In this document: in pieces, positions 4,630 through 63,924 of the stretch | How positions within the stretch are numbered: position 1 is the first letter of the stretch | How the letters are laid out: every line of letters begins with the position of its first letter | Origin: Patescibacteria group bacterium | GTDB taxonomy: Bacteria; Patescibacteriota; Minisyncoccia; Phycocordibacterales; Phycocordibacteraceae | Direction: 5' to 3' | NCBI GenBank assembly: GCA_019752595.1 | Contig: JAIELV010000001.1 | Coordinates: forward strand, 378,551-442,550 | DNA: 64,000 nucleotides | The notes under the pieces: model-generated | The model's database searches: none | Told to the model about the DNA's origin: nothing | Seen by the model: only the letters and a program-made list of their open reading frames with translations | Position numbers and translations under genes: made by a program

Positions 4630-5193
4630 ATGACTCCCGATAAGAGTGCAATCTTGGACGACGTCATAAAATTTGCACTCATCGCACTCCTTATTGTCGT
4701 ACCGCTTCGATGGTTCGTCGCACAGCCGTTCATTGTGCGTGGCGCATCCATGGAGCCAGTATTCGAAAACGGCGAATATCTGATTGTTGACCAGCTCACC
4801 TACCGTTTCGAAGAGCCTGAACGTGGAGATGTCATTATCATGCGCTATCCGAAAGACCCTGACGTCTTCTTTATTAAGCGAATCGTAGGGCTACCAAGCG
4901 AAACGGTCGAACTCCAAGGGAAACAAGTCATCATCCGTCGCGGAGTAAATGAAGAATCAATCACGCTCGACCAATCATTCATCGAGCCAGAGCGGATGCG
5001 CGACGAATACGGAACCTATGCCTTAGGCGATGATGAATACTTTGTGATGGGCGACAACAGAAATGAAAGTTCCGATTCGCGCTCATGGGGTTCACTGCCA
5101 CGCGACAACATTATCGGCCGTCCGTTTATCCGCCTTTTCCCGCCAACACGAATTGATCTTTTCCCCGGTCACATTACAACTCAACCACAATAA
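4630..5193 (+). CDS. lepB: signal peptidase I
   Basis: N-terminal TM helix, catalytic SMEP (Ser) box, GDNRxxSxDSR box. An alternative start is at 4594. Confidence 0.85.
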   Translation: MTPDKSAILDDVIKFALIALLIVVPLRWFVAQPFIVRGASMEPVFENGEYLIVDQLTYRFEEPERGDVIIMRYPKDPDVFFIKRIVGLPSETVELQGKQVIIRRGVNEESITLDQSFIEPERMRDEYGTYALGDDEYFVMGDNRNESSDSRSWGSLPRDNIIGRPFIRLFPPTRIDLFPGHITTQPQ

Positions 5194-7164: not shown

Positions 7165-7170
7165 CAGCAC

Positions 7171-7563
7171 GTGGCTTCCTTCTCTCTCGTCAATGAAACC
7201 CGAAACCCTCTCCTGAGGGTTTCTTTTCGTAAAATCGCAAAGGAAGTTATGGGCGAGAAGTATTCCCTGTCGGTTATTTTCACTACACCGAAAAAAATAG
7301 CTAAGTTGAATGGAAGCTACCGCGGGAAGCCTACTTCAACAGACATCCTTTCGTTCGGGCTCTCAAAAACAGAGGGCGAACTCTACATTTCAATGCCTGA
7401 TGTTGTAAAAAAAGCCCCACTTTTCTACCTTTCAACTAAAAAATATCTCGAGTACCTGTACATTCACGGCCTCATACACCTCAAAGGTTTTGATCACGGA
7501 CGAAAAATGGAAGCGGTAGAGAAAAAATACTGCAAACGGTTCGGGTTCACGCATCCCTCGTAA
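7171..7563 (+). CDS. ybeY: rRNA maturation endoribonuclease YbeY
   Basis: TDILSF motif and H..HxxGxDH zinc motif (HGLIHLKGFDH). Confidence 0.8.
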   Translation: MASFSLVNETRNPLLRVSFRKIAKEVMGEKYSLSVIFTTPKKIAKLNGSYRGKPTSTDILSFGLSKTEGELYISMPDVVKKAPLFYLSTKKYLEYLYIHGLIHLKGFDHGRKMEAVEKKYCKRFGFTHPS

Positions 7564-7657
7564 ATCAGCGTGATAATATAACGGAAAGGTTGGCTTTAAG
7601 GAGTGTGCTTTTTGGTTTCCCTATACCCTAAACGCTGAACCCTAACCACTTCTCACA

Positions 7658-8830
7658 ATGGCATCACGCATCGCAGTCGGCATAGATATAGGCACCTACC
7701 AGGTTCGGGTTGTTATTGCTCGCGAATCCAGTGACCGCTCTTCTTTGTACCCGAAAATTATCGGCACAGGCTACGCGGAATCAAAGGGACTTCGTCACGG
7801 CTACATCGTGAACCACGACGACGTCGCTGCTGCTATTCGCGTTGCCGCACACCAGGCGGAAAAACTGGCTGGAGTAAGAATAAAAACAGCATTCCTTTCA
7901 ATTGGCGGTATTGGTATCGATGAAGTACGCGGTGTCGGCGAAGCGGTTGTCTCGCGTGCGGACAACGAAGTTACCGACTTGGATATCGACAAAGCAATCG
8001 AAACATCGCGGGCAAACATCGCGGGCAAACTCATCAACCGCAGAGTCCTGCACACCATCCCCCTCTCCTACACGATTGACGGCGCGGAAGTTTTGGGGCG
8101 CCCTCAAGGCATGCGCGGTGCGAAAATTTCTGTTGAAACTCTTTTTGTTACCTGTCTCAAACAACACGTTGAAGATTTAATTGAATCGGTGGAAGGCGCG
8201 GAAATTGCAGTCTCCGACATCATGGCGTCGCCCTTGGCAGGTTCGCTCGTCACCGTATCGAATGCTGAAAAAAAAGCAGGATGCGTGTTAGCAAACATCG
8301 GCGCAGAAACTGTTTCGATTGTTGTCTTCGACAACGGTCTCCCGATGTCGATGAAAGTGTTCAAAATCGGCTCGATGGATATCACCAAAGACATCGCGCT
8401 CGGACTTCGCATCTCACTTGATGAGGCAGAGCAACTCAAACTTGGCGCTGTCACACACGCACAGTACTCAAAGAAAAAATTTGATGACATTCTCTCGGCG
8501 CGTCTTGCGGATATCTTTGAACTAATTGATGGACACTTAAAAAAACTCGGGAAAGACCAAATGCTTCCTGCAGGAATTATTTTGACAGGTGGTGGCTCGG
8601 GTATCGGGCCGATAAAAGAAATTGCGGAATCTTCCCTAAAGCTTCACTCAAAAATTGCACAGATTAATATTCCTGCGGATGCAAAAATAAAAGATTCAAC
8701 GTGGGCAGTTGCCTACGGCATGACCATTTGGGGCCTGACGGGCGATTCATTTGCACGTCCCGCTGCAGGAGAAGCGATTTCTGATATCGGCAAATCAATA
8801 GGGGGCTTTTTCAAACAGTTCCTCCCGTAA
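7658..8830 (+). CDS. ftsA: cell division protein FtsA
   Basis: Actin-like ATPase (GIDIGT), 390 aa, directly upstream of ftsZ. Confidence 0.88.
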   Translation: MASRIAVGIDIGTYQVRVVIARESSDRSSLYPKIIGTGYAESKGLRHGYIVNHDDVAAAIRVAAHQAEKLAGVRIKTAFLSIGGIGIDEVRGVGEAVVSRADNEVTDLDIDKAIETSRANIAGKLINRRVLHTIPLSYTIDGAEVLGRPQGMRGAKISVETLFVTCLKQHVEDLIESVEGAEIAVSDIMASPLAGSLVTVSNAEKKAGCVLANIGAETVSIVVFDNGLPMSMKVFKIGSMDITKDIALGLRISLDEAEQLKLGAVTHAQYSKKKFDDILSARLADIFELIDGHLKKLGKDQMLPAGIILTGGGSGIGPIKEIAESSLKLHSKIAQINIPADAKIKDSTWAVAYGMTIWGLTGDSFARPAAGEAISDIGKSIGGFFKQFLP

Positions 8831-8864
8831 AAAATAGCTGTCAAAAAACTCACTTTTGTTAAAA

Positions 8865-9143
8865 TTATTCTTTTCGTTTTTTTGATTTATCTTCTAAAGC
8901 CTTAGAATATAACGCGTCACAAAGTAAATACGAACCTCCAAGAGCGTTAGCGAACACGAGCCCACTGATGAGAATCAGCTCTTCTGTGGATTCTGGGTCA
9001 AAGACAAATGGTGATACCGCGGCCGCACCTAATCCGACTACGCCACACAGTGCGTTCGCTCGACGATTGTTTCGCTCGCGTAAATGGCGCGCTACGCGAT
9101 CCCCTGGTGAAGGTTTTGGAGTGTGGTCGGGAGATTCCGTCAT
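8865..9143 (-). CDS. small membrane protein (hypothetical)
   Basis: ORF antisense between ftsA and ftsZ with a Gly/Ala-rich hydrophobic segment. Weak support. Confidence 0.25.
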   Translation of the reverse strand: MTESPDHTPKPSPGDRVARHLRERNNRRANALCGVVGLGAAAVSPFVFDPESTEELILISGLVFANALGGSYLLCDALYSKALEDKSKKRKE

Positions 9144-20809: not shown

Positions 20810-20929
20810 TTGGATGCAACTTCGCGATTCTAGCATTTTTCAATCAAAATGCTATATTTCAAGCCACGGCTTCATGCAATGAAGCCGCTCGGCTCATAAA
20901 GAGCGCCTTCTGCGATAGCAGAAGGATCG

Positions 20930-20969
20930 GCCCGCCAAACGTGCAGCTCTGCTCACGTTTGAGTGGCCT
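20930..20969. repeat. 40-bp direct repeat, copy 1, containing the hairpin AAACGTG...CACGTTT
   Basis: Identical to 21041-21080. Confidence 0.85.
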
Positions 20970-21040
20970 TCTTGAAACAGTTTTGCTCACGCAAAACCTC
21001 GGCTTAGAAAAAGCCCTTATCTGCTAAAGCAGATAACTCA

Positions 21041-21080
21041 GCCCGCCAAACGTGCAGCTCTGCTCACGTTTGAGTGGCCT
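21041..21080. repeat. 40-bp direct repeat, copy 2
   Basis: Identical to 20930-20969. Confidence 0.85.
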
Positions 21081-24221: not shown

Positions 24222-24294
24222 GGGCGGTTAGCTCAGTTGGTAGAGCATTCCCTTGACGTGGGAAGGGTCACAGGTTCGAATCCTGTATCGCCCA
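24222..24294 (+). tRNA. tRNA-Val (anticodon GAC)
   Basis: Manual fold: GGGCGGT acceptor, D-arm GCTCAGTTGGTAGAGC, anticodon loop TTGACGT, T-arm ACAGGTTCGAATCCTGT. Confidence 0.9.
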
Positions 24295-24300
24295 CTCGAT

Positions 24301-24567
24301 ATGAATCTTGAAGAAATTGAAAAAGAGATCTCGGCAATTCAAGAACGTAATAAAAAAGTCGAGACTGATAAAGCGTGGGAGGTGAGCCTAGCACGCAAGA
24401 TCCTTATTGCGGTCATGACGTACGTAGTCGTGCTTCTCGCACTATTTGTAGTAGAGGCACCGAATCCTTACTTGAATGCGTTTGTGCCGAGCACGGGTTT
24501 TCTTCTTTCAACGCTTTCGCTACCCTGGTTTAAAAAGAAGTGGATAGAATCGCGTAAACAAAAATAG
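24301..24567 (+). CDS. small membrane protein, hypothetical
   Basis: ATG immediately after tRNA-Val. Coiled N-terminus plus TM helices. Confidence 0.4.
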   Translation: MNLEEIEKEISAIQERNKKVETDKAWEVSLARKILIAVMTYVVVLLALFVVEAPNPYLNAFVPSTGFLLSTLSLPWFKKKWIESRKQK

Positions 24568-24592
24568 CGGGTGTAGGATTTCTCCTATACCT

Positions 24593-25168
24593 GTGGATCT
24601 CGAAAAACAAAAACTCCTGGTTCCACGCGTCCCACGAAGAGCAGTACTTGCAGGTCTGTTATTGCCGCTTGTGAAAACGGTTCCTGCGACGCGTGAAGAA
24701 CGACAACGACTTGCTGAGCAAAATATTTCACACCTTCCTGAAATAGTGCTTGCCGATTTGCGCGCGCGAACTTCGGGGGTCGGAGAAACCCATTTCGGCG
24801 ACGAGCTTGCTGCAGGCAGATTCCTGGCGAGTGAAAACGAGCTCGGGAGAGAAGTGAGCGCTGCCATACTTGAGCTCCAGGGCGAGGGCGACCAAAAGAT
24901 AGCCCCTGATCTTGCAGAAGCACAGGTGTATTGGCTACTCAGAAATTCTGGGCATGGTCAAAGGCTGTCGCGTACAGAACGTGAAGCTATTGTTGCTCTT
25001 TCAAATTGGTGGCCTGAGATCTTTGAGCCGTATTACGACGACGGAGATGGTTCGCGCCGCACGCTTGTTGAAGAAATGCGAAACTACCCCTCGCTTCAAA
25101 GAGCTTTTGAAAGAAGCGGGCGTCAAGACATAGAAGTTGCCGACGCGAAATCCCGCTCATCCGACTAA
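24593..25168 (+). CDS. hypothetical protein (GTG start)
   Basis: 191-aa ORF with no motif. Confidence 0.45.
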   Translation: MDLEKQKLLVPRVPRRAVLAGLLLPLVKTVPATREERQRLAEQNISHLPEIVLADLRARTSGVGETHFGDELAAGRFLASENELGREVSAAILELQGEGDQKIAPDLAEAQVYWLLRNSGHGQRLSRTEREAIVALSNWWPEIFEPYYDDGDGSRRTLVEEMRNYPSLQRAFERSGRQDIEVADAKSRSSD

Positions 25169-25193
25169 AGTGCTATACTAAGTATAGCACTTT
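25167..25193. repeat. 27-bp perfect palindrome AAAGTGCTATACT-A-AGTATAGCACTTT, a family member of 2573-2601
   Basis: Sits between the convergent 3' ends of the 24593 ORF and orn. Confidence 0.8.
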
Positions 25194-25203
25194 GCGTGGG
25201 CAC

Positions 25204-25767
25204 TTAGAGGGAAAGGAGTTTGGTGCGGTAGTATTTCAACTCCTCAATAGAGCGAAGAATATCTTCTTTCGCGCGATGCGCTTTCTCCCCTTTCATGTTT
25301 TGCCACTCGTCATACAGCTCAGGTTTCCACCTGCGTGCAAGTTCTTTCAGAGTTGAAACATCAATGTTTCTATAAAACAGGTGGTCATACACCGTCGGCA
25401 TTTGTGCTTTCAAAAACATTCTATCCATGTGTACAGAATTTCCGCACAGTGGGGCTGTTCCTGCTTCTGCGTGTTCAGAAATGAATGAGAACAATTCTTT
25501 TTCTGCTTCAGCGAGGGTCACGACGCTTGCAACAGACGCTTCTAAAACTCCGCTCTTTTCATGAAGCGCTTTCACTTCGGGAGTGATACGGTCAAATGCG
25601 CTTCTGTCCGCGTGGATTGTAATTTCAGGGCCTTCAGCAACAATGTTCAATTCTTTGTCGGTAATCACCGTTGCAACCTGAATAATTTGATCCGTATTCA
25701 CATCTGCCAAGGACGTCATTTCAACATCCATCCATACCCACAGGTCGCTTCGTGTATGCATATTCAT
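25204..25767 (-). CDS. orn: oligoribonuclease (DEDDh 3'-5' exonuclease)
   Basis: WMDVEMTSL exo I motif and H-x4-D exo III motif, about 187 aa. Confidence 0.85.
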   Translation of the reverse strand: MNMHTRSDLWVWMDVEMTSLADVNTDQIIQVATVITDKELNIVAEGPEITIHADRSAFDRITPEVKALHEKSGVLEASVASVVTLAEAEKELFSFISEHAEAGTAPLCGNSVHMDRMFLKAQMPTVYDHLFYRNIDVSTLKELARRWKPELYDEWQNMKGEKAHRAKEDILRSIEELKYYRTKLLSL

Positions 25768-25833
25768 ATCAGGAAACAGTGTAGCGTACCTCGCCGTTTT
25801 TTACACAACAACTACCAATACCATATCACACCT

Positions 25834-25867
25834 ATGTCACTATGTTACCATGGTAACATAGTGACAT
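25834..25867. promoter_or_regulatory. 34-bp perfect palindrome ATGTCACTATGTTACCATGGTAACATAGTGACAT upstream of orn
   Basis: Seen in sequence in the orn 5' region. Confidence 0.6.
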
Positions 25868-25923
25868 ATATACACGCCACACATTCCGCATGTAAATACT
25901 AGACAATTTAAATACTGTGTAAT

Positions 25924-26577
25924 TTAAATAATATGCAAAAGCTCGGGAAGCACACTCACCTGCTTCCATGCAGCCCCCCTCAATTCCTCTGTGCCATTAC
26001 CAACAAGCACCCCGCGTCCCGTATACCGAAAACCCTCAATATCATTAATTGAATCTCCTACAAACAGTATTTCTTCTGGCTTCGCACCCACTTTATCGCC
26101 GAAGTCCTTGAGAGCTCTTACTTTCGCCTGAAGCTCGTCAGAATCTTCGTTATACGCAATTCCAGAAAACACACCGTCCGTATACACAAACGATGTGTAT
26201 GAATACGCATGCTGTATGCCAAGCGCTTCGGCTACAGAACGTACGTAATCTGTGAGTCCTGAAGAAATGACGGCGAGAGGGTATTTTTTTAGAAGAACAT
26301 CGGCGACCTCTTTCGCACCTGGAAGCAGTCGGAAGTTTTTAAAAACACTGTCTGCCTGCTCTTTCGTAATGCCTGGTGTTTTTTTAAGATACAAATCCGC
26401 CATCATGTCGGTTACTGCACGAAAAGAAAGTGCGCCATCGACATACAGTCTGTGCAACCGCACATTGTCTTCGCGGGACAAACCGAAAAGCACGTGCAAT
26501 TCCTCCCACACATAAGAATCAATAAGAGTGCCGTCAACGTCAAACGCGACGGCTTTGATAGCAGGCATTTCTCCCAT
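25924..26577 (-). CDS. HAD-superfamily hydrolase
   Basis: FDVDGTL motif I, and motif IV GDSxND. Confidence 0.8.
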   Translation of the reverse strand: MGEMPAIKAVAFDVDGTLIDSYVWEELHVLFGLSREDNVRLHRLYVDGALSFRAVTDMMADLYLKKTPGITKEQADSVFKNFRLLPGAKEVADVLLKKYPLAVISSGLTDYVRSVAEALGIQHAYSYTSFVYTDGVFSGIAYNEDSDELQAKVRALKDFGDKVGAKPEEILFVGDSINDIEGFRYTGRGVLVGNGTEELRGAAWKQVSVLPELLHII

Positions 26578-26582
26578 AAAAA

Positions 26583-26792
26583 TTAATCGTCCTCTTCTTC
26601 AGCGTAACGTCCTCGCAATACATCGTGTGCAGTAGCGCGCCATGCTTGCCTTCCAGCCCTTGTCGCAGCACGACCGTCAGCAGCTTTCCACTTTGCTTCC
26701 GCTTTCTTCCCTATCTTCCTTTTTCGCGGACTCACCTCTCCATCCTTCGGTGCCTCGCCTTCCCCTGCCTCTAAATGCGTGAAGTCTGCCAT
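26583..26792 (-). CDS. small basic protein, hypothetical
   Basis: 69 aa, Lys/Arg-rich, operonic with the HAD hydrolase. Confidence 0.35.
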   Translation of the reverse strand: MADFTHLEAGEGEAPKDGEVSPRKRKIGKKAEAKWKAADGRAATRAGRQAWRATAHDVLRGRYAEEEDD

Positions 26793-26845
26793 GATGATTC
26801 AAAAGTTACTGAATGATATAGTACCCACTGAAACCACTGATTGCA

Positions 26846-28006
26846 ATGAAAATCCTAGCTATAGAAACCAGCTGCGACGAAACTGCAGCAACCATCCTTG
26901 AAGGCTCGGGGGACGTCAAAAACGCACACTTTAAAATCCTCGGAAATGCTCTTCTCTCACAGGCTGATCTTCACGCTGCATACGGGGGCGTATACCCTAA
27001 CCTCGCGAAACGCGAGCATCAGTTAAACCTTGTTCCGCTCACACTTCGCGCGCTCACTGAAGCGGGGTTGTACGAAAAAGAAGAAGGCATTACCCCGTCG
27101 CAAGAAGAAGCGTTGAATGAAGTGCGCGAACAAGGTTTTAAAGATGCAATAAAAAACTTCCTGTACGAAGTAAAAACCCCTGAGATAGATTTAATTGCGG
27201 TTACACATGGTCCAGGCCTTGAGCCTGCGTTGTGGACAGGTATCAGTTTCGCATCAGCTATCGGGAAAGCGTGGAACATTCCTGTGATGGGAATCGACCA
27301 CATGGAAGGACATATTGTTTCTGCGCTTTTAGAACCCGTCGACAAAGGTTATTCGCTTCGCCCACCGAAATTGCCTCTCCTCTCGCTTTTGATTTCAGGC
27401 GGACACACTGAATTCGTCCTTATGGAAGAGTGGTTTGTGTATGAAAGAATTGGCGAAACCAAAGACGACGCTGTGGGCGAAGCATTTGATAAAGTCGCTC
27501 GCCTCTTGAATCTTGCCTATCCAGGCGGGCCGCAAATCGCGGCGCTTGCGGCCCGCTCGCGAGCACGCGACAAAAACGACATTATTTTTCCTCGCCCCAT
27601 GGCGACTGACGCGACCTGTGATTTTTCTTTCTCTGGGTTGAAAACAGCAGTGATGTACAAACTTCAAAAGATGGACAAAATTAGCGAAGAAGACAAAGAG
27701 CACATCGCGCACGCATTTGAAGACGCGGTGCGCGATGTGCTCGTCATCAAAACCCGCCGTGCACTCACCGAAAAAATGCCTGGCTCATTCCTAATCGGTG
27801 GCGGTGTGTCGGCAAACGACCTCGTTCGTCGTGGACTGGTGGATTTAGTACAAAAGGATTTCACGGACACCGAAGTATTTCTCCCTGAAAAAGAATTGAC
27901 GGGCGACAACGCCATTATGATAGGTGTAGCTGCATACCTCCGCGCCTCTTCAGGCAGGAAACCACAAGGACCGCTTTTTGCATCGGGCTCCCTGCGACTC
28001 TCTTAA
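26846..28006 (+). CDS. tsaD: tRNA N6-adenosine threonylcarbamoyltransferase TsaD/Kae1 family
   Basis: MKILAIETSCDETAA start, HxEGH metal motif (HMEGHIVS), 386 aa with an insert. Confidence 0.88.
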   Translation: MKILAIETSCDETAATILEGSGDVKNAHFKILGNALLSQADLHAAYGGVYPNLAKREHQLNLVPLTLRALTEAGLYEKEEGITPSQEEALNEVREQGFKDAIKNFLYEVKTPEIDLIAVTHGPGLEPALWTGISFASAIGKAWNIPVMGIDHMEGHIVSALLEPVDKGYSLRPPKLPLLSLLISGGHTEFVLMEEWFVYERIGETKDDAVGEAFDKVARLLNLAYPGGPQIAALAARSRARDKNDIIFPRPMATDATCDFSFSGLKTAVMYKLQKMDKISEEDKEHIAHAFEDAVRDVLVIKTRRALTEKMPGSFLIGGGVSANDLVRRGLVDLVQKDFTDTEVFLPEKELTGDNAIMIGVAAYLRASSGRKPQGPLFASGSLRLS

Positions 28007-56366: not shown

Positions 56367-56377
56367 AATCATATTTT

Positions 56378-56866
56378 TACGCGTCGCACCGATAAGCCGA
56401 GTTCTGTCTTCGTTTTGGAAACCAAAACGGAGGCAATCATGTATCTGGGATTTTCGTTACCGAAAACCTCGAGCGGCACTCCCGCACACCAACTTTGCCA
56501 TCGTCGTTCTTGTGCCAACCATGGCTCACTGAACTGGCGATATTCACTGTTCTGGCGTTTACCCGAGGTATATTTTCTCGGAACGACAGAGGCACAATGA
56601 CAAAGTTGGTGTGCGGGCACGGCCTTGCACTCAGGTATGTATTTAGCCGTTTCATTCTTACCTTTCAGTAAGACTCGCCCCGCCGTCACCGAAGTGACAT
56701 CGGGGCGTCCTCGGCCTTTCGGCCTCGGACGTTTCTGCTCGCAACACGCGCTCGGGCGTAACCGAGCGGACGGGCGTTACCCGCTACCTTGCTCCGTATC
56801 ATTTCTGATGCGGGAGTGTTCGGACTTTCCTCTCCTTTGAAAGAGCGACTGCCTGGTGCTCGCTTA
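56378..56866 (-). ncRNA. rnpB: RNase P RNA (bacterial type)
   Basis: Minus strand carries the P4 strands GGAGAGGAAAGTCCGAAC (5') and GACAGAACTCGGCTTATCGGTG (3'). The ends can pair as P1 (GCGAGCACC/GGTGCGACGC). No credible ORF. Confidence 0.75.
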
Positions 56867-58326: not shown

Positions 58327-59406
58327 CTATGGAGTGAACTTTTTTGTTCGGTACAAAGCTCCGCCGTTTACCTCGAGTGTTTTTTTCAGTTCCGCCGTCT
58401 TTAGTTTCACATCGTCAAACCCTATATTTTCAACATTCACGACGGTAATGACCACACTTCCGCCTTGAAGAAAAATGAGAGTGTCCGTATAGCCTGGAAA
58501 TTCGACCCCTTTAAATATGTCGTACATGTTCATATCGCCCACGAGATTAATAGTGTCTTCTCCGCCAGCCCCATCAAAAAACACACCTTTTCCAGTCCAA
58601 TACGAACGAGCAAGCGGGGTGTTGGCTGCGTACTTCGTTGTATCGGACGTATACGTGGAACCCGAACCAATACGAAATAATTTGGTAAGCCCGCTCACGC
58701 GGCCCGTCGCTACGTCAACAACTGCAATCTGGTAGTGTCCTTCTCTCAGTCGGACGACTGCCTCTGTACCCGCCTCAGTAATATATTTCTCCTCCAAGTA
58801 CCATTCAAATACTTTTGCATCTGCACGCGGAGAGGTTTCTGCGGTTATACGTGCTTCATGTATACCGTTTATGCGCCCCAATAAATCCTTGTGAATAACA
58901 AACATACGGTACTGTGGCGTCACCGCAGTGGGATCACGCACCTCAATGTGATATTGCAAACCGAAAGTAAGCGGACCTTCGTCGGGCGAGAGTGAAACTG
59001 AAAAAGCGCCAGCGGCAACCTTCTCTTCAAGAGAAGAACTTTGCGTTACTATCTCGCCCCCCCATGCGCACGTCCCTGCGCCTGCCGAAATCGCACACAC
59101 GTCGCGCGCGGATGCTTTGGTCACATTCGGAAACATCGCGACGACTTTCAATTCATAGCTCACCGTTAGGTCGCGTCTTTCGTTTGAAGTACCCGCATCA
59201 GTTTTTGGATCGTATGCAGTTGCGCCTGATACATCGGAAGCAGTAGGAACAACATCAACAACTGTTTCACTTTCAGATATAGGTTTAGTCTGCTTGATGT
59301 ATTGCGATGTAAAAAAGACGTACGCCAACCCTCCTAACATTCCAAGCGCTAACGCAACAATGGCTATTTTGACCATAGGATGCGTACAGTGTACGACAAT
59401 CTGCAC
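58327..59406 (-). CDS. membrane-anchored extracytoplasmic protein, hypothetical
   Basis: N-terminal TM helix (IAIVALALGMLGGLAYVFF) and a C-terminal beta-rich domain. Confidence 0.5.
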   Translation of the reverse strand: MQIVVHCTHPMVKIAIVALALGMLGGLAYVFFTSQYIKQTKPISESETVVDVVPTASDVSGATAYDPKTDAGTSNERRDLTVSYELKVVAMFPNVTKASARDVCAISAGAGTCAWGGEIVTQSSSLEEKVAAGAFSVSLSPDEGPLTFGLQYHIEVRDPTAVTPQYRMFVIHKDLLGRINGIHEARITAETSPRADAKVFEWYLEEKYITEAGTEAVVRLREGHYQIAVVDVATGRVSGLTKLFRIGSGSTYTSDTTKYAANTPLARSYWTGKGVFFDGAGGEDTINLVGDMNMYDIFKGVEFPGYTDTLIFLQGGSVVITVVNVENIGFDDVKLKTAELKKTLEVNGGALYRTKKFTP

Positions 59407-59410
59407 ATCA

Positions 59411-59588
59411 TTGCGGTGAAATTATATCCTTTGCGCGAACCCATTTCGAGCAGAACCCCTGACCTATCGCGCCTCGCGGACTCGGCGCTCCCCGCGCGAG
59501 GACGCGCGGGCGACCGAAGCCCTGCCGCTTCCTATGCATTTCTGTTTTGGCGGGGGAAGTGCATTGAAGAATTGGAATGGAGCGGCAG
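59411..59588. repeat. IR1-L: 178-bp inverted repeat, perfect reverse complement of 61554-61731
   Basis: Direct base-by-base comparison. GC-rich with internal hairpins (CCGCGCG-AGGA-CGCGCGG). Confidence 0.9.
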
Positions 59589-59689
59589 GGCTTCGGTCGA
59601 AATGCATTGTGCTTGCCCCTCCCTCCCAGTGCGCGCACATCAGTTTTGCCGTTTTTAGGAAAAATTATAAAACGGCAAAACTGACTCCC

Positions 59690-61249
59690 TTAAATGCTAC
59701 CGGAAAATCCAAGCGGAATTTCTTTCGCGAGACTTTCCAAATGTTCGGTCATAAATTGGTCTTTTTCATAATACGGGACAATTTTCCGAACCATTTCGTA
59801 CAAACTCTTTGTCTTGGAACTAAGTTGTTCTTTGCCACGAATTTCTGCAGCTTGACACGCGCACATCAATTCAAAGGCAATAATATATTTTGCGTTTTCA
59901 AAAATAGTTTTTGCTCGTCGCGCCGCGATTAGTCCCATAGAAACTATGTCTTGAAAATCCTCGGTTGAGGTTAGTGTTTGAATGGAAAGCGGAACACAAA
60001 GCGACCTATTCTCGGCAGTAAGAGAGGTTGCCATAAATTGACCTCCCATCAAACCAAACTGCAATCCGGGTACAGGAGAAAGAAAAGGCGGCAATCCATT
60101 GCTGTGATGGCTGTCCAAAAATCTATCTATTCGTCTGTCGGACAAATTTGAAAGCGTCGTGAGACTTATGGCGAGTTGGTCCATCGCCATCGCAATATAT
60201 TGGCCGTGAAAATGCCCATTGTGAAAGACATCTTGCTCGCTTTCTATAACTAATGGATTATCGTTAGAAGAATTTAATTCGTCCTCTACTACCTGACTAA
60301 TAACTTCTAGATTGTCGCGAATTGGTCCGATAATTTGCGGAGTGCATCGCAAAGAATATGCGTCTTCAATTTGAATGGGATTTCCTTGCGGATTATCCTT
60401 TCTATTTTTTTGTAATGTACTGCCGACCGAATCTTCATCGGCAATCATTTTACTATCAGCGAGAATGGCAAAAATATTTTCTGCTGTGATTTGCTGCCCT
60501 TTGTGAGGTTTAAGAGCGTGGACTCTGGGGTCAAATGGTTTTCGAGTTGCTTTCAGTGTTTCAAGTGTAATAGCCGAGACGACATCGTAAGTCGCGAGCA
60601 AACTTTTTACTTCGTCAATCAAAACAGAAGCCATACCAACCATCGCTGAAGTTCCGTTTATCATTGCCAAACCCTCTTTAAAACCAAGTGTCATTGGCTC
60701 AATTTTTGCCGCCTTTAGTGCGTCCGCACCCGATATAATTTTTCCATCAAATTTTGCTTTCCATTGGCCGATTCCGACCAACGCAATGCAAGCAAGCGGC
60801 GCAAGGTCGCCACTTGCGCCCAACGAACCCTTTTCAGGAATACAAGGAATAATCCCTGCGTTGAAAATCGCAATAAACTTTCTGAAATTTTCTTCGGAAA
60901 TTGCAGAATTACCTCTCGCTAAAGAGTGTATGCGAGCGAGCATAGTTGCCCGCACGATTTCATCGGGCAGAAAATTTCCTACATTGGTCGCGACACCATT
61001 GAGCAAATTTACTTGCAACTCACCGAGTTTGTTTTCCGGAATAAGCCAACTCACAAAACCTCCCATTCCGGTATTTACTCCGTAAATAGTTCTTCCGTCT
61101 TTTACAAGTTTTTCGAGTGTTTGGCGGCACTTGGCAACTCGCTCGAAAACCTCATTATCAAAATCAATAGTCGCCTTTGGATTACGCGCAACCGCAACAA
61201 GCCCTGCGAGGGTAAGTTGTTCCGAATCCATTTTAAATACGGTTTCCAT
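59690..61249 (-). CDS. histidine/aromatic amino-acid ammonia-lyase (MIO-dependent HAL/PAL/TAL family)
   Basis: 519 aa. GSLGASGDLAPLA carries the Ala-Ser-Gly MIO-forming triad. Hairpin terminator at 59641-59685. Confidence 0.85.
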   Translation of the reverse strand: METVFKMDSEQLTLAGLVAVARNPKATIDFDNEVFERVAKCRQTLEKLVKDGRTIYGVNTGMGGFVSWLIPENKLGELQVNLLNGVATNVGNFLPDEIVRATMLARIHSLARGNSAISEENFRKFIAIFNAGIIPCIPEKGSLGASGDLAPLACIALVGIGQWKAKFDGKIISGADALKAAKIEPMTLGFKEGLAMINGTSAMVGMASVLIDEVKSLLATYDVVSAITLETLKATRKPFDPRVHALKPHKGQQITAENIFAILADSKMIADEDSVGSTLQKNRKDNPQGNPIQIEDAYSLRCTPQIIGPIRDNLEVISQVVEDELNSSNDNPLVIESEQDVFHNGHFHGQYIAMAMDQLAISLTTLSNLSDRRIDRFLDSHHSNGLPPFLSPVPGLQFGLMGGQFMATSLTAENRSLCVPLSIQTLTSTEDFQDIVSMGLIAARRAKTIFENAKYIIAFELMCACQAAEIRGKEQLSSKTKSLYEMVRKIVPYYEKDQFMTEHLESLAKEIPLGFSGSI

Positions 61250-61254
61250 AGGTC

Positions 61255-61476
61255 TTAGTTGATAAAGTAGTTTAAAGGTTTTTTATAGATTTTCGCCAAC
61301 TCTGCTAATTCTACCGCGTCCACACTACGCTCGCCTCGTTCTATTTTGGACAAGTACGCCTGTGGCTTCTTCAGCTTTTTACCTGCCTCCACCTGCGTCA
61401 AATTTGCCGCTAGGCGAGCGGAACGGAGTTTTGCTGCAAATTTTCTATATTGAGCCGAATATTTCTTCCTCGTCAT
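61255..61476 (-). CDS. XRE-family helix-turn-helix transcriptional regulator
   Basis: 74 aa. LTQVEAGKKLKKPQAYLSKIERGER HTH_3 signature. The longer ORF to 61608 runs into IR1-R and was not used. Confidence 0.75.
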   Translation of the reverse strand: MTRKKYSAQYRKFAAKLRSARLAANLTQVEAGKKLKKPQAYLSKIERGERSVDAVELAELAKIYKKPLNYFIN

Positions 61477-61553
61477 TATTTTAACATGGTATAACCCATT
61501 GTGGAATATACCAGTTTGGTATATTCTTTTGTGAGAGCGGAACGCCCTCACTT

Positions 61554-61731
61554 CTGCCGCTCCATTCCAATTCTTCAATGCACTTCCCCCGCCAAAACAG
61601 AAATGCATAGGAAGCGGCAGGGCTTCGGTCGCCCGCGCGTCCTCGCGCGGGGAGCGCCGAGTCCGCGAGGCGCGATAGGTCAGGGGTTCTGCTCGAAATG
61701 GGTTCGCGCAAAGGATATAATTTCACCGCAA
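61554..61731. repeat. IR1-R: 178-bp inverted repeat (partner of 59411-59588)
   Basis: Perfect reverse complement of IR1-L. Overlaps IR2-L by about 6 bp. Confidence 0.9.
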
Positions 61732-61857
61732 CTTGATACTTCCATCGGATTTAATTCCGAATCTGCGCCCGAGGCGGGCGGGCGCAGATGCATTTTCGCG
61801 CGCAGACGCGCGGTATTCTCTGACGGCGGGGAGAATCCGAAATGCGGGGATTTGCCC
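61726..61857. repeat. IR2-L: about 132-bp inverted repeat, perfect reverse complement of 63272-63405
   Basis: Direct comparison. Contains internal hairpins (TCTGCGCCCG-AGGC-GGGCGGGCGCAGA). Confidence 0.9.
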
Positions 61858-61879
61858 TTGTTTCAATCCAAAACCACTT

Positions 61880-63532
61880 ATGGATAACAAACCAAAATAT
61901 TTTCTATACGCGCGTAAGTCGTCAGAGGATGATGACCGCCAAGTGATGAGCATTGAGGCGCAACTGTTTGAACTGCGTGAATACGCGTGTAAAGAAAACC
62001 TTGAAATTCTTGAGGAATTTCAAGAGTCGAAAAGCGCAAAGACACCCGGCCGTGATATTTTCGGCCTCCTCATGGCGAAAATTGAGCGTATGGACGGCGT
62101 AGGCATACTCGCGTGGCATCCCGATAGGTTGGCGCGTAATAGCGTGGACGGAGGCAGAGTTATTTATGCCGTAGACACGCGCAAACTGGTGTCTATGCGC
62201 TTTCCGACATTTTGGTTTGAACCCACCCCGCAGGGGCTGTTTATGTTGCAAGTGGCGTTCGGCCAATCGAAATATTATTCCGATAATTTGAGTGAGAATA
62301 TCAAACGGGGTATCCGCCAAAAATTGCGACGAGGCGAGTGGTTGAACTGCGCTCCCTTTGGCTATCAGAATAATTTGCGTATCAGGAATATCGAACCGCA
62401 CCTAACCGAAGCGCGTATCGTGAAATTAGCGTACGAAGAATACGCCAAAGGGTCGCACACTCTCGTTTCGCTCGCGCAATTTTTGGCGGAGCTGGGCGTA
62501 CTTACGAAAAACCGAACGCCACTTGCCAAAGTTTCCATCAAACGGCTTCTAACGCACCGCGTCTATATCGGCTTTGTGAAGCACGCAGGCGAATGGTTTG
62601 ACGGAAACTTTGAGCCAATTCTTTCACCGCAATTATTTGAAGCCGTACAGAAAATCGTCGTGAGCAAGGAACGGCCGCGCAAAAGGAAAATCAAGCACGA
62701 TTTTCCTTTTACCGGACTTTTTCGATGTGGCGAGTGCGGAAGCATGATTAGCGCACAATGGGCAACTGGAAAATCCGGCGGTCGCTACCGCTATTATCGG
62801 TGTTCGAAAAAGCGCGGCCGTTGCTCTCAACCGTATGTGCAGGAAAGTGAGTTAGCGGACAAAATCACGGCACGGCTTCAAACAATCTCACTCCCCGATA
62901 GGTATACCGGCTGGATGCTGAACAAAGTGGACGAATGGGAGCGCGAAGAAACCGCCTCAACGGGGAGCGAGGTTCAAAATCTTTCCGAGCAAATCAAAGC
63001 GAACGAGGCACGCATGGAGAAACTCGTTTCTGCGTACTTAGATAACGATGTACCGAAAGAAATGTACTTGAAGCGAAAAGACGCGCTCATGCGTGTCCTC
63101 GCCGCTTTGAAAGTCGAAAAGAAAAATTTTGAACGCGGAAGAAAGAATTGGGTCGAACCCCTGCAGAAGTGGATTTTGGATATGAAACAAGCCGATTTTT
63201 TGTCCTCATCCAGCAATTTCGGAGAAATTGCCTCCTTCGTCAAAAAAGTCGGAACGAACCCTATGGTTCGTGGCAAATCCCCGCATTTCGGATTCTCCCC
63301 GCCGTCAGAGAATACCGCGCGTCTGCGCGCGAAAATGCATCTGCGCCCGCCCGCCTCGGGCGCAGATTCGGAATTAAATCCGATGGAAGTATCAAGTTGC
63401 GGAGACGGCGAGATTCGAACTCGCGGAGGTTTGACCCTCACTCGCTTTCCAAGCGAGCGCACTAGACCACTATGCGACGTCTCCGTTGCCTTCTTGTATA
63501 CCATATATGTAACCTCCCTACAGCTTCCGTAG
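61880..63532 (+). CDS. large serine recombinase (resolvase domain, recombinase domain, zinc ribbon)
   Basis: YARKSSEDDDRQVMSIEAQ catalytic Ser motif near the N-terminus and a CGECG...YYRC zinc-ribbon. The C-terminal reading frame continues through IR2-R and the antisense of tRNA-Ser, so the true stop is uncertain. Confidence 0.8.
   Translation: MDNKPKYFLYARKSSEDDDRQVMSIEAQLFELREYACKENLEILEEFQESKSAKTPGRDIFGLLMAKIERMDGVGILAWHPDRLARNSVDGGRVIYAVDTRKLVSMRFPTFWFEPTPQGLFMLQVAFGQSKYYSDNLSENIKRGIRQKLRRGEWLNCAPFGYQNNLRIRNIEPHLTEARIVKLAYEEYAKGSHTLVSLAQFLAELGVLTKNRTPLAKVSIKRLLTHRVYIGFVKHAGEWFDGNFEPILSPQLFEAVQKIVVSKERPRKRKIKHDFPFTGLFRCGECGSMISAQWATGKSGGRYRYYRCSKKRGRCSQPYVQESELADKITARLQTISLPDRYTGWMLNKVDEWEREETASTGSEVQNLSEQIKANEARMEKLVSAYLDNDVPKEMYLKRKDALMRVLAALKVEKKNFERGRKNWVEPLQKWILDMKQADFLSSSSNFGEIASFVKKVGTNPMVRGKSPHFGFSPPSENTARLRAKMHLRPPASGADSELNPMEVSSCGDGEIRTRGGLTLTRFPSERTRPLCDVSVAFLYTIYVTSLQLP
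63272..63405. repeat. IR2-R: inverted repeat (partner of 61726-61857)
   Basis: Perfect reverse complement of IR2-L. Abuts the 3' end of tRNA-Ser(GGA). Confidence 0.9.
63400..63484 (-). tRNA. tRNA-Ser (anticodon GGA)
   Basis: Manual fold: GGAGACG acceptor, anticodon loop TTGGAAA, long variable arm, T-arm GCGAGTTCGAATCTCGC. No CCA encoded. Confidence 0.85.
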
Positions 63533-63551
63533 TACTACATACAGACATATC

Positions 63552-63586
63552 GGAGCGCGGCCACAAGCCGCGCTTTTGGTTTTCTA
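63552..63586 (+). terminator. rho-independent terminator (plus-strand orientation)
   Basis: AGCGCGGCCACAAGCCGCGCT followed by TTTTGGTTTT. Confidence 0.55.
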
Positions 63587-63597
63587 CTTAAACAAAA

Positions 63598-63924
63598 TCA
63601 CCAGCTACCGCTTGCACCCCCGCCACCCGAAGAACCACCTCCGAACCCGCCGAAACTTCCTCCACTCGAACCACCCCATGTACTTCCCCCTGTCCACCAC
63701 GGCGGAGTCGAACCTGAAGAGCGCGCTTCACGGTATGCGCTTGAAACCGCGAAATCAACAATCAGCCCGATAACAATCAGCGGGATCGCGCTTATCAAAG
63801 CCACGCTTACACCTGCAAAAAGTGCAACCACACCTGCTCCTACTGCACCAAAAACACCTCCCAACCACCAGTCCTTTGTACGCGACATAATCGACACAAC
63901 CCATGCGCCGACAAAGAAAATCAT
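63598..63924 (-). CDS. membrane protein with a Gly/Ser-rich C-terminal tail, hypothetical
   Basis: 2-3 TM helices followed by GGSSGGSFGGFGGGSSGGGG. Confidence 0.4.
   Translation of the reverse strand: MIFFVGAWVVSIMSRTKDWWLGGVFGAVGAGVVALFAGVSVALISAIPLIVIGLIVDFAVSSAYREARSSGSTPPWWTGGSTWGGSSGGSFGGFGGGSSGGGGASGSW

Follow-up and report, generated by a model that had tools for sequence, protein, structure and literature searches.

A probable integrative element at a tRNA-Ser gene of Patescibacteria, with a large serine recombinase and nested inverted repeats

The closest described systems to the locus analysed here, positions 59411-63405 in a window (the whole stretch of DNA that was analysed) of 64,000 nucleotides from a Patescibacteria group bacterium (GenBank assembly GCA_019752595.1, contig JAIELV010000001.1, positions 378,551 to 442,550), are the elements of large serine integrases: SPbeta (SprA/YokA), phiC31, Bxb1, A118/LI, Tn4451 (TnpX) and SCCmec (Ccr). 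The locus has the same enzyme class and domain order, and likewise conservative integration at a short core, attachment sites attL and attR that share the core alone, and a recombinase gene beside the attachment (att) site. To our knowledge, known serine integrase elements carry one attP of ~50 bp and no long repeats. Unlike them, the Patescibacteria family to which the locus belongs duplicates the whole att region (131 nt + 61-434 nt) in inverted orientation and keeps the copies identical; furthermore, its target is mainly one half-site (the tRNA end), a directionality factor is not evident and the recombinase open reading frame (ORF) is without an internal stop.

Ecologically, the closest analogue is found in the tycheposons of marine cyanobacteria, with which the family shares size, tRNA 3' targets, arrays and cargo types. 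Tycheposons are small cargo elements of streamlined genomes, located at tRNA 3' ends, arranged in tandem arrays and loaded with metabolic and defence cargo; among 937 tycheposons and cryptic elements, 910 rely on tyrosine recombinases and many carry replication genes, and neither long inverted repeats nor an internal att copy are reported for them (bioRxiv 10.1101/2020.12.28.424599). The locus also recalls the Hin, Gin and Cin segments, which are flanked by inverted sites and have the recombinase gene within them (Hin) or next to them, with crossovers at the edges as in the P1 C segment. The latter has inverted repeats of ~0.6 kb with cix sites at their outer ends. Hin, Gin and Cin are small invertases with a C-terminal helix-turn-helix (HTH), an enhancer and Fis, and both orientations coexist and switch which gene or promoter is read, whereas the Patescibacteria element has a large serine integrase, a fixed orientation and a locally neutral inversion. 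In the yeast 2-micron plasmid, FLP/FRT lies within inverted repeats of 599 bp; FLP is a tyrosine recombinase, and the plasmid replicates autonomously and amplifies its copy number by inversion. The circle proposed below would be similar to it, as two identical inverted repeats holding short recombinase targets would part two unique segments, but the window element is without a replication gene and its circle was not observed. The distinguishing trait of the family is that an inverted copy of the whole att is obligatory inside the element and is perfectly maintained; this trait is apparently undescribed. The initial annotation of the window knew of no described element with exactly this layout, and our literature search likewise found no description of this mirrored-att architecture. 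A 2025 study of Patescibacteria gene exchange is without mention of recombinases or tRNAs (PMC12455944).

The locus (3,995 bp) is probably one integrated copy of a small site-specific integrative element that is common in Patescibacteria; its features are listed in Table 1. A repeat search returned two pairs of arms as the sole long repeats within the window. The first inverted repeat (IR1) has arms of 178 nt, 100% complementary and separated by 1965 nt, and a perfect inverted repeat of this length excludes a chance origin. The second (IR2) has arms of 134 nt with one mismatch (99%) and a gap of 1415 nt. Both had been annotated as exact, with lengths of 178 bp and about 132 bp. This is confirmed for IR1, and for IR2 the pair is real but exact over 131 nt only (61726-61856 / 63272-63402). 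The two pairs share 9 nt (61723-61731); counting the exact part of IR2 alone reduces this to 6 nt, which is the overlap of about 6 bp given previously. No extra arm copies were found in the 64-kb window with up to three mismatches, where 0 were expected by chance. The G+C content of the arms was ~60%, compared with 48% for the window. Fold z-scores were -2.65 and -2.33 for the B arm (IR2) and 0.07 and -1.24 for the A arm (IR1). The hairpin content of the B arm is therefore real and that of the A arm is not above composition, so that the earlier description of all arms as GC-rich and full of hairpins stands for the G+C content and for the B arm, but not for the A arm. In an Rfam search of the locus the tRNA alone was matched, and the A and B arms fit no known RNA family.

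A 9-nt motif, TC(A/T)CCGCAA, composed of the acceptor-stem end, the discriminator base and three more nucleotides, occurs three times at the arm ends (cores S1, S2 and S3). S1 and S3 are direct repeats at the ends of the element, and S2 is inverted. S1 matches S2 on the A side and departs from it directly past the core, while S2 and S3 are common on the B side; the other side of S3 is the tRNA and the other side of S1 is unrelated host DNA. On the minus strand, the order is tRNA, S3, B, recombinase (antisense), B', S2', A', XRE, lyase, A, S1 and gene X (the primes in this order stand on the inner copies). The nested inverted repeats are one att region of ~305 bp, which is present once intact (S2, 61554-61856) and once split across the element ends. 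Taking A/B as attP-like and tRNA/X as attB, S3 is attL and S1 is attR. The sole mismatch of IR2 is an A in S1 and S2 and a T in S3, and it lies on the tRNA side of the core, as expected of a crossover inside CCGCA. The initial annotation had offered a small tRNA-associated integrative module with long inverted repeats as one of its two readings, and the direct 9-nt core at both ends of the locus (59411-59419 / 63397-63405) speaks for that choice. It had also let the right arm of IR2 end exactly at the 3' end of the tRNA-Ser gene; the arm does adjoin the tRNA, but it extends 3-7 nt into it.

For comparison, repeats and tRNAs were recorded in a census of 63 fetched genomic loci and a few metagenomic ones. 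An inverted pair of ~131 nt flanked the recombinase in 35 of the 39 loci with a complete gene and flanks, at a spacing of 1413-1416 nt. The far arm overlapped the 3' end of a convergent tRNA in 28 of these 35 loci (21 Ser with anticodons cga, gct, gga and tga, 4 Glu, 1 Arg, 1 Gly and 1 Leu) and adjoined a tmRNA gene in another two, so the edge seen in the window, an intact tRNA-Ser(gga) with B' over its last 3-7 nt, is the usual one. A second, adjacent pair (61-434 nt) enclosed a cargo of 1-6 kb in 17 of the 25 loci with at least 3 kb upstream. Where it was missing, the partner arm may lie past the fetched flank; in the complete genome CP064994 (L057) the partner A arm is 7.6 kb away. An A-type arm adjoined the B arm in all loci examined. 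The common layout is tRNA, B arm, recombinase, B' arm, A' arm, XRE regulator with variable cargo, A arm and host flank, and homologues of the window-type XRE regulator have an equal place and orientation in other loci. The three-site rule of the window, with S1 and S3 at both element ends as direct cores, was obeyed in about 22 loci having both pairs. The element insertions span many classes of the phylum. Replication genes were absent among the sampled cargo proteins.

The insertions at tmRNA 3' ends (L047 9388-9917 and L049 9387-9914) show the nested-repeat layout with the core CCACA.

Across the family, the last 35 nt of the A arm (GGGTTCGCGCAAAGGATATAATTTCACCGCAA in the window) are conserved, and the consensus of the A-arm end between loci is GGGTTCGCGCAAAGG-TAATA-nnTCACCGCA. 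This end resembles the T-arm and acceptor end of a tRNA with 6 extra nt of spacing: in the tRNA arm GGTTCG is 13 nt away from the centre, in the A arm 19 nt. For serine integrases, including the LI integrase, the half-site spacing is reportedly longer in attP than in attB (Rutherford and Van Duyne 2013), and the A-arm spacing is reminiscent of this. The B arm contains a conserved GAAACTTC box, 7-14 nt from the centre. When the centre was placed by the symmetry of the GGTTCG-type and GAAACTTC boxes, a shared core of 5 nt was obtained, which reads CC-GCA at Ser tRNAs, GC-ACA at tRNA-Gly, TC-ACA at tRNA-Glu and CC-ACA at tmRNA. To the right of the centre, S1 retains the original tRNA trailer (the encoded CCA in L022, L030 and L046) and S3 has element sequence. 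The host-side arm X is not conserved between loci, and the enzyme thus seems to need mainly the tRNA half-site.

Arm identity was compared over the inner 125 nt of the B arm. Within a locus, the median identity was 100% (22 of 37 exact, minimum 96%); between loci, the median was 63%, with nearest neighbours at 66-99%. The two B copies of a locus change together, that is, they undergo concerted evolution, and these values bear out the initial annotation, which had taken the perfect identity as a sign of recent formation or active homogenisation. The B arm is homologous over 44 loci with a fixed inner boundary, which indicates that the duplication is old and inherited and was not made afresh with random ends. 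Decayed arms were seen in L008 (95.6%) and L051 (91.5%), and L060 had none. Gene conversion, possibly set off when the recombinase cleaves the cores, could keep the arms identical, and conversion started in this way would explain why identity begins exactly at the cores. Alternatively, the arms may be renewed at each transposition. In dead copies, the arms would decay. An origin of the inverted copies from conservative site-specific recombination alone was considered and rejected, as this process cannot duplicate or homogenise sequence.

Two contigs of one metagenome-assembled genome (L018 and L019) carry recombinase genes with 98.3% nucleotide identity and B arms with 85% identity between the copies, each copy's own arms matching at 98-100%. 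The recombinase genes of two different elements in one genome may thus have exchanged sequence by gene conversion.

The recombinase is of the large serine integrase class. Its N-terminus is a Resolvase domain (PF00239, E 1.3e-20, residues 8-154), followed by Recombinase (PF07508, E 1.1e-12) and then Zn_ribbon_recom (PF13408, E 1.1e-12). Residues 9-412 align with the SPbeta integrase YokA/SprA, including the position of the catalytic Ser (YARKSS in the window recombinase, YLRRS in YokA) and the zinc-ribbon cysteines, and with its end at residue 412 the alignment covers the coiled-coil insert region. Among its very many close relatives, all attributed to Patescibacteria, the best 120 database clusters were 66-83% identical to the window enzyme. 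No relative was found when a viral contig collection was scanned with the recombinase, which speaks against a phage origin. The other two proteins of the element, a lyase of the histidine ammonia-lyase family and an XRE regulator, are those that had been annotated within IR1 (PF00221 and PF01381), and according to Pfam the element codes for nothing else. Look-ups for exact matches to the recombinase, the lyase and the gene X product of the window returned no record.

As previously annotated, the recombinase frame passes through the right arm of IR2; the ORF has no stop inside the element and continues through B' and the tRNA antisense to 63532. In the window and 33 related loci the stop lies 123-687 nt past the start of the far arm, mostly beyond the att core. 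A stop outside the element means that the C-terminal tail would differ between the integrated and the excised state, or that the mRNA may lack a stop. Evidence for the coding nature of this tail is weak, the recombinase frame through B' being open in 31 of 33 loci and the +1 frame in 27 of 33.

In the same set of loci, the recombinase stop usually falls in the tRNA antisense or in the flank. Gene callers lengthen the recombinase through the left arm (a 599-aa ORF starting with TTG in the window) and through the tRNA.

On this model, the large serine recombinase would have inserted the element at the last acceptor-stem bases of tRNA-Ser(GGA). Recombination of S1 with S3 would restore the tRNA/X junction, with an attB that would read …CGTCTCCGCAATGATGTGCAG…, and free a circle of ~4 kb, on which two inverted att regions would part the recombinase segment from the cargo segment. 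The tRNA half-site would outlast integration in the tRNA/B junction, so that a new element could enter beside the tRNA and build up tandem arrays.

Evidence for mobility comes from several comparisons. Near-identical B arms were found at tRNA-Ser cga, gct, gga and tga in different genomes, and the occurrence of the recombinase subfamily at other tRNA-Ser isoacceptors, other tRNAs and tmRNA also upholds the integrative reading in the initial annotation. In the orthologous elements L043/L045, L047/L049 and L012/L014, similarity ends exactly at S1. More than one copy was present in some genomes (L018/L019, L008/L037 and L014/L024). The arrays in L001, L021, L024, L037 and L063 all consist of alternating cargo and recombinase units, which fits composite elements better than independent modules.

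In the three-unit array of L024, two identical spacers of ~180 nt (4702-4881 and 8277-8453) terminate against the B arm, each with 24 nt that repeat the tRNA-Ser 3' end. A similar spacer of 166 nt is present in L034 (6179-6343), where it runs from the real tRNA to a tRNA-end fragment. L034 additionally carries a second, more distant recombinase (7169-8995, ~50% identity), for which a separate 147-nt inverted pair adjoins the 3' end of tRNA-Arg(gcg), and this second element is the mirror image of the first, 1 kb apart. In L025 (1-2146), a complete A-core-B flanks the recombinase on either side (a 227-nt pair with 96.5% identity) and the cargo follows after the recombinase; this was read as two elements of the same type in an array, the second recombinase having been lost.

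The two A arms contain the joint best sigma-70-like matches in 59300-63600 (10 of 12 positions). A promoter in the A arm would fire outward via the core, to the recombinase at S2 and to gene X at S1; the insertion would have severed gene X from whatever lay upstream. Only 23 nt of unique sequence precede the ATG of the recombinase. Transcripts from A would carry B at the 5' end and B' at the 3' end, able to pair over 131 nt, and read-through from the tRNA would run antisense to the recombinase; such an mRNA panhandle or antisense RNA could hold the recombinase down. With the two B copies, GC-rich hairpins come to lie immediately behind the tRNA and on either side of the recombinase gene. Compensatory hairpins in the B arms are visible by eye, with no claim of statistical covariation, and RNAalifold on 33 B arms returned no consensus structure, which is explained by hairpins that are out of register between subfamilies. 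A general role of B as a terminator was rejected, as the T tracts face opposite ways between the window and other subfamilies. The position of the internal A/B region between divergent genes recalls the res site of Tn3. That res site doubles as an operator.

Several observations weigh against the integrative model or parts of it. Equivalent att copies on a circle predict both orientations of the integrated element, and essentially all loci that could be read through show the convergent one; the single orientation implies that the copies differ in use, that one outcome is lost or selected against, or that the internal copy is no donor site. No excised circle was observed. Contig L066 (3,923 nt) has a circle-like form, with cargo, XRE regulator, a 399-nt A-core-B, the recombinase and then the same 399 nt inverted to the contig end, but this form is equally obtainable by an assembly-graph walk through the repeat. 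The repeats are longer than reads and k-mers. An empty site with identical flanks was not found among the fetched loci, where synteny was seen on the tRNA side alone and the genomes were too diverged, with rearrangements instead. The nearest approach is L102, a relative of the window genome whose gene X is 72% identical; a stretch of 555 nt holds a tRNA 3' end (…GAGAGTTCGAATCTCTCCGCCTCCGCA), a glyoxalase gene and X, and neither recombinase nor repeats are present. It is an approximate empty site, as the contig begins inside the tRNA and has one extra gene. Serine integrases normally require a directionality factor for attL x attR, and no candidate was recognised in the genes of the element. 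The two pairs are not always of the same age, as L044 has a B pair with 100% identity and an A pair with 91.6%. With regard to the regulatory signals, the promoter-like box is strong in the window and a few loci; the position of the -10-like box is kept in many loci but not in all, and in the largest subfamily it is a weak TAATAC, so that recombinase binding may be what conserves it. The T tracts of the window point inward, those of most other loci outward.

The other reading in the initial annotation, an inverton within an inverton, corresponds to a double invertible switch similar to a shufflon, in which S2 and S3 would serve to flip the recombinase gene, and S1 and S2 to flip the cargo; this could, for example, put the recombinase under or against read-through from the tRNA promoter. 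The three cores do alternate in orientation with each segment bounded by inverted sites, and frequent recombination would yield perfect arms. A metagenome scan was aimed at the opposite state, with tRNA, B arm and recombinase on one strand, and ~12 contigs of this kind are known (L036 from the genome set, and L069, L073, L075, L078, L081, L083, L085, L091, L096, L097 and L100). However, each of them breaks off within the recombinase gene or at most 58 nt from the far arm, and neither the genomic loci nor the contigs of the metagenome scan include a complete flipped locus; truncated flipped contigs are expected from graph ambiguity, as the 131-nt repeat is longer than the usual k-mer. As the comparison covers assembled contigs, a rare minority orientation may still exist. 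In all loci that could be read through both B arms the recombinase was convergent with the tRNA. In at least 14 loci, the gene nearest to the inner A arm was the XRE gene, oriented divergently to the recombinase; orthologous cargo in different genomes had identical orientation. Moreover, as the arms are identical, inversion leaves the adjoining 131-178 nt of each gene unchanged and alters nothing within 130-430 nt of either gene. A switch would also leave the sharp element boundaries, the varied tRNA targets and the arrays unexplained, and large serine integrases are not known to recombine attP with attL or attR. With the wrong enzyme class, no sight of a second orientation and connections that inversion does not change, we regard the double switch as unlikely and do not follow the earlier reading.

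It is similarly improbable that two independent modules lie side by side, an autonomous recombinase module with terminal inverted repeats of 131 nt and a non-autonomous cargo cassette whose own terminal inverted repeats mimic the tRNA. Each segment has its own perfect inverted repeat, age differences between the A and B pairs occur (L044, L041), the cargo varies among elements with nearly the same recombinase and arms, and multi-unit arrays exist. Yet the A arm lay beside the B arm in all loci examined, with no solo recombinase module against host DNA, and the arrays always alternate between cargo and recombinase, M2 of L063 and the units of L024 encoding recombinases. The cores around a single module are also inverted, and their non-palindromic centre (CC, TC) permits inversion but not excision. 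An assembly artefact, either a duplication-inversion chimera or a palindromic contig, would be in keeping with the many related contigs that break at or inside repeats and with L066, which shows that a graph walk can make mirror-image ends. The same in-register architecture, however, recurs in more than 35 assemblies from unrelated projects with SPAdes-, MEGAHIT- and Flye-style contig names, including the complete genome CP064994; the arms differ between genomes and match within each, and family contigs of 100-640 kb exist with the element far from the contig ends. An artefact, which had been named beforehand as a possible refutation, is thus extremely improbable. The same applies to the other explanation named at that time, dispersed repeats of the type of miniature inverted-repeat transposable elements (MITEs) that flank the genes by chance. 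The arms are GC-rich, partly hairpin-forming and non-coding in appearance, but there are just two copies per arm in the 64-kb window and no diverged ones at up to three mismatches, and in other genomes the arms are always fixed relative to the recombinase and the tRNA, which leaves next to no room for a MITE family.

Within the favoured integrative model, our confidence in any specific role of the internal att copy is much lower than in the model as a whole. Possible roles of the internal copy are those of a regulatory operator and leader, of a second attP, and of antisense or panhandle control of the recombinase mRNA. It is conceivable, though rather doubtful, that the internal inverted att is the working part of a transposition or control mechanism unknown for serine integrases, for which three versions were considered. 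In one, a second attP would stay intact while the element is integrated, as a live donor or landing site that works without a directionality factor. In another, the arms would be regenerated from one template at each move, in the manner of long terminal repeats, and be perfect in live and decayed in dead copies. In the last, the mirrored arms would allow a single strand to fold back on itself, be it the recombinase mRNA or DNA acquired by competence, and the resulting duplex att site or mRNA panhandle would gate the recombinase. Two other routes were rejected: excision of a single module, because its flanking cores are inverted and non-palindromic, and spread by recombination of the internal site with a new attB on linear incoming DNA, because this predicts the flipped orientation.

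Patescibacteria (Candidate Phyla Radiation) have tiny genomes and their gene exchange is poorly understood, and the element family is abundant among them, with several copies in many genomes. It ferries metabolic and defence genes (lyase, cytochrome cd1, GTP cyclohydrolase II, dCMP deaminase, restriction-modification and an ABC component). Should any version of the internal-att mechanism be true, the family would represent the principal route dedicated to gene exchange in Patescibacteria and have a mechanism of its own; how the arms stay identical and what the internal site does is in any case a sharp mechanistic question. The census also supplies natural attP-like and attB-like sequences for a clade of serine integrases specific for tRNA ends, which are possible tools. 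Saccharibacteria are now transformable and could be a setting for them. Finally, the family is a systematic source of assembly breaks and mis-annotation in Patescibacteria.

Contigs that start or end in or beside the repeats include L003, L006, L007, L009-L011, L015, L038-L040 and others, as well as L069-L100.

Table 1. Features of the locus, with positions and strands in the window, and cargo of the window element and related loci.
Feature	Locus	Position	Strand	Remarks
Host gene X, beyond S1	window	58327-59376		host flank
Core S1 TCACCGCAA	window	59411-59419	-	read as attR crossover, A arm / host flank X
A' arm (IR1 left), outer copy of A	window	59411-59588		100% complementary to 61554-61731
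Sigma-70-like site TCGAAA-17-TATAAT, outer A arm	window	59421-59449	-	faces through S1 to gene X
Cargo: histidine/aromatic amino-acid ammonia-lyase, 519 aa, ASG motif	window	59690-61249	-	PF00221, E 1.7e-168, full-length match
XRE-family HTH regulator	window	61255-61476	-	PF01381, E 1.1e-12; leads cargo operon, divergent from recombinase
Promoter-like site for XRE gene, unique sequence	window	61505-61478	-	putative function
Palindrome GAATATACCA-GTT-TGGTATATTC, unique sequence	window	61504-61526		candidate operator, putative function
A arm (IR1 right), inner copy	window	61554-61731		inverted-repeat search
Sigma-70-like site TCGAAA-17-TATAAT, inner A arm	window	61693-61721	+	faces through S2 and B arm to recombinase
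Core S2 TCACCGCAA	window	61723-61731	+	intact A/B junction, inverted vs S1 and S3, read as attP-like
B arm (IR2 left), inner copy	window	61723-61856		ends 23 nt before recombinase ATG
Large serine recombinase	window	61880-63532	+	conserved core 61880-63270 (463 aa)
B' arm (IR2 right), outer copy, adjoins tRNA	window	63272-63405		inverted-repeat search
Core S3 TCTCCGCAA	window	63397-63405	-	read as attL crossover, tRNA acceptor end / B arm
tRNA-Ser(GGA), intact, target gene	window	63399-63484	-	Rfam 58.4 bits
Cargo	window			histidine ammonia-lyase
Cargo	L002			dCMP deaminase + GrpB
Cargo	L014 and L037			GTP cyclohydrolase II fused to methyltransferase
Cargo	L043 and L045			cytochrome cd1 with cytochrome b5
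Cargo	L049			MamI-type restriction enzyme, DNA methylase, ThiF/DUF6791 protein
Cargo	L022 and L046			DUF6671
Cargo	L041			ABC transporter

Some further observations were made in the surroundings of the element and of its relatives. In L014 (3300-4821), the host flank past S1 includes a tRNA-Val and matches, in inverted orientation, genes across the tRNA-Ser/tRNA-Glu cluster in the window (24222-27600), L011, L012 and L046; this arrangement may be due to a chromosomal inversion that has one of its ends at the element. The window contains a direct repeat of 83 nt with 84% identity (20888-20969 / 20998-21080) in the interval from tRNA-Ser(cga) to tRNA-Glu(ttc). The tRNA-Ser(cga) gene harbours a family member in six other genomes and is empty in the window.

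A bacterial class A RNase P RNA was found at window positions 56376-56864 (minus strand) with 95.4 bits (E 1e-29). As the Rfam gathering score is 100, it is missed at the default threshold, and it accounts for a GC-rich gap of 690 nt without a real ORF.

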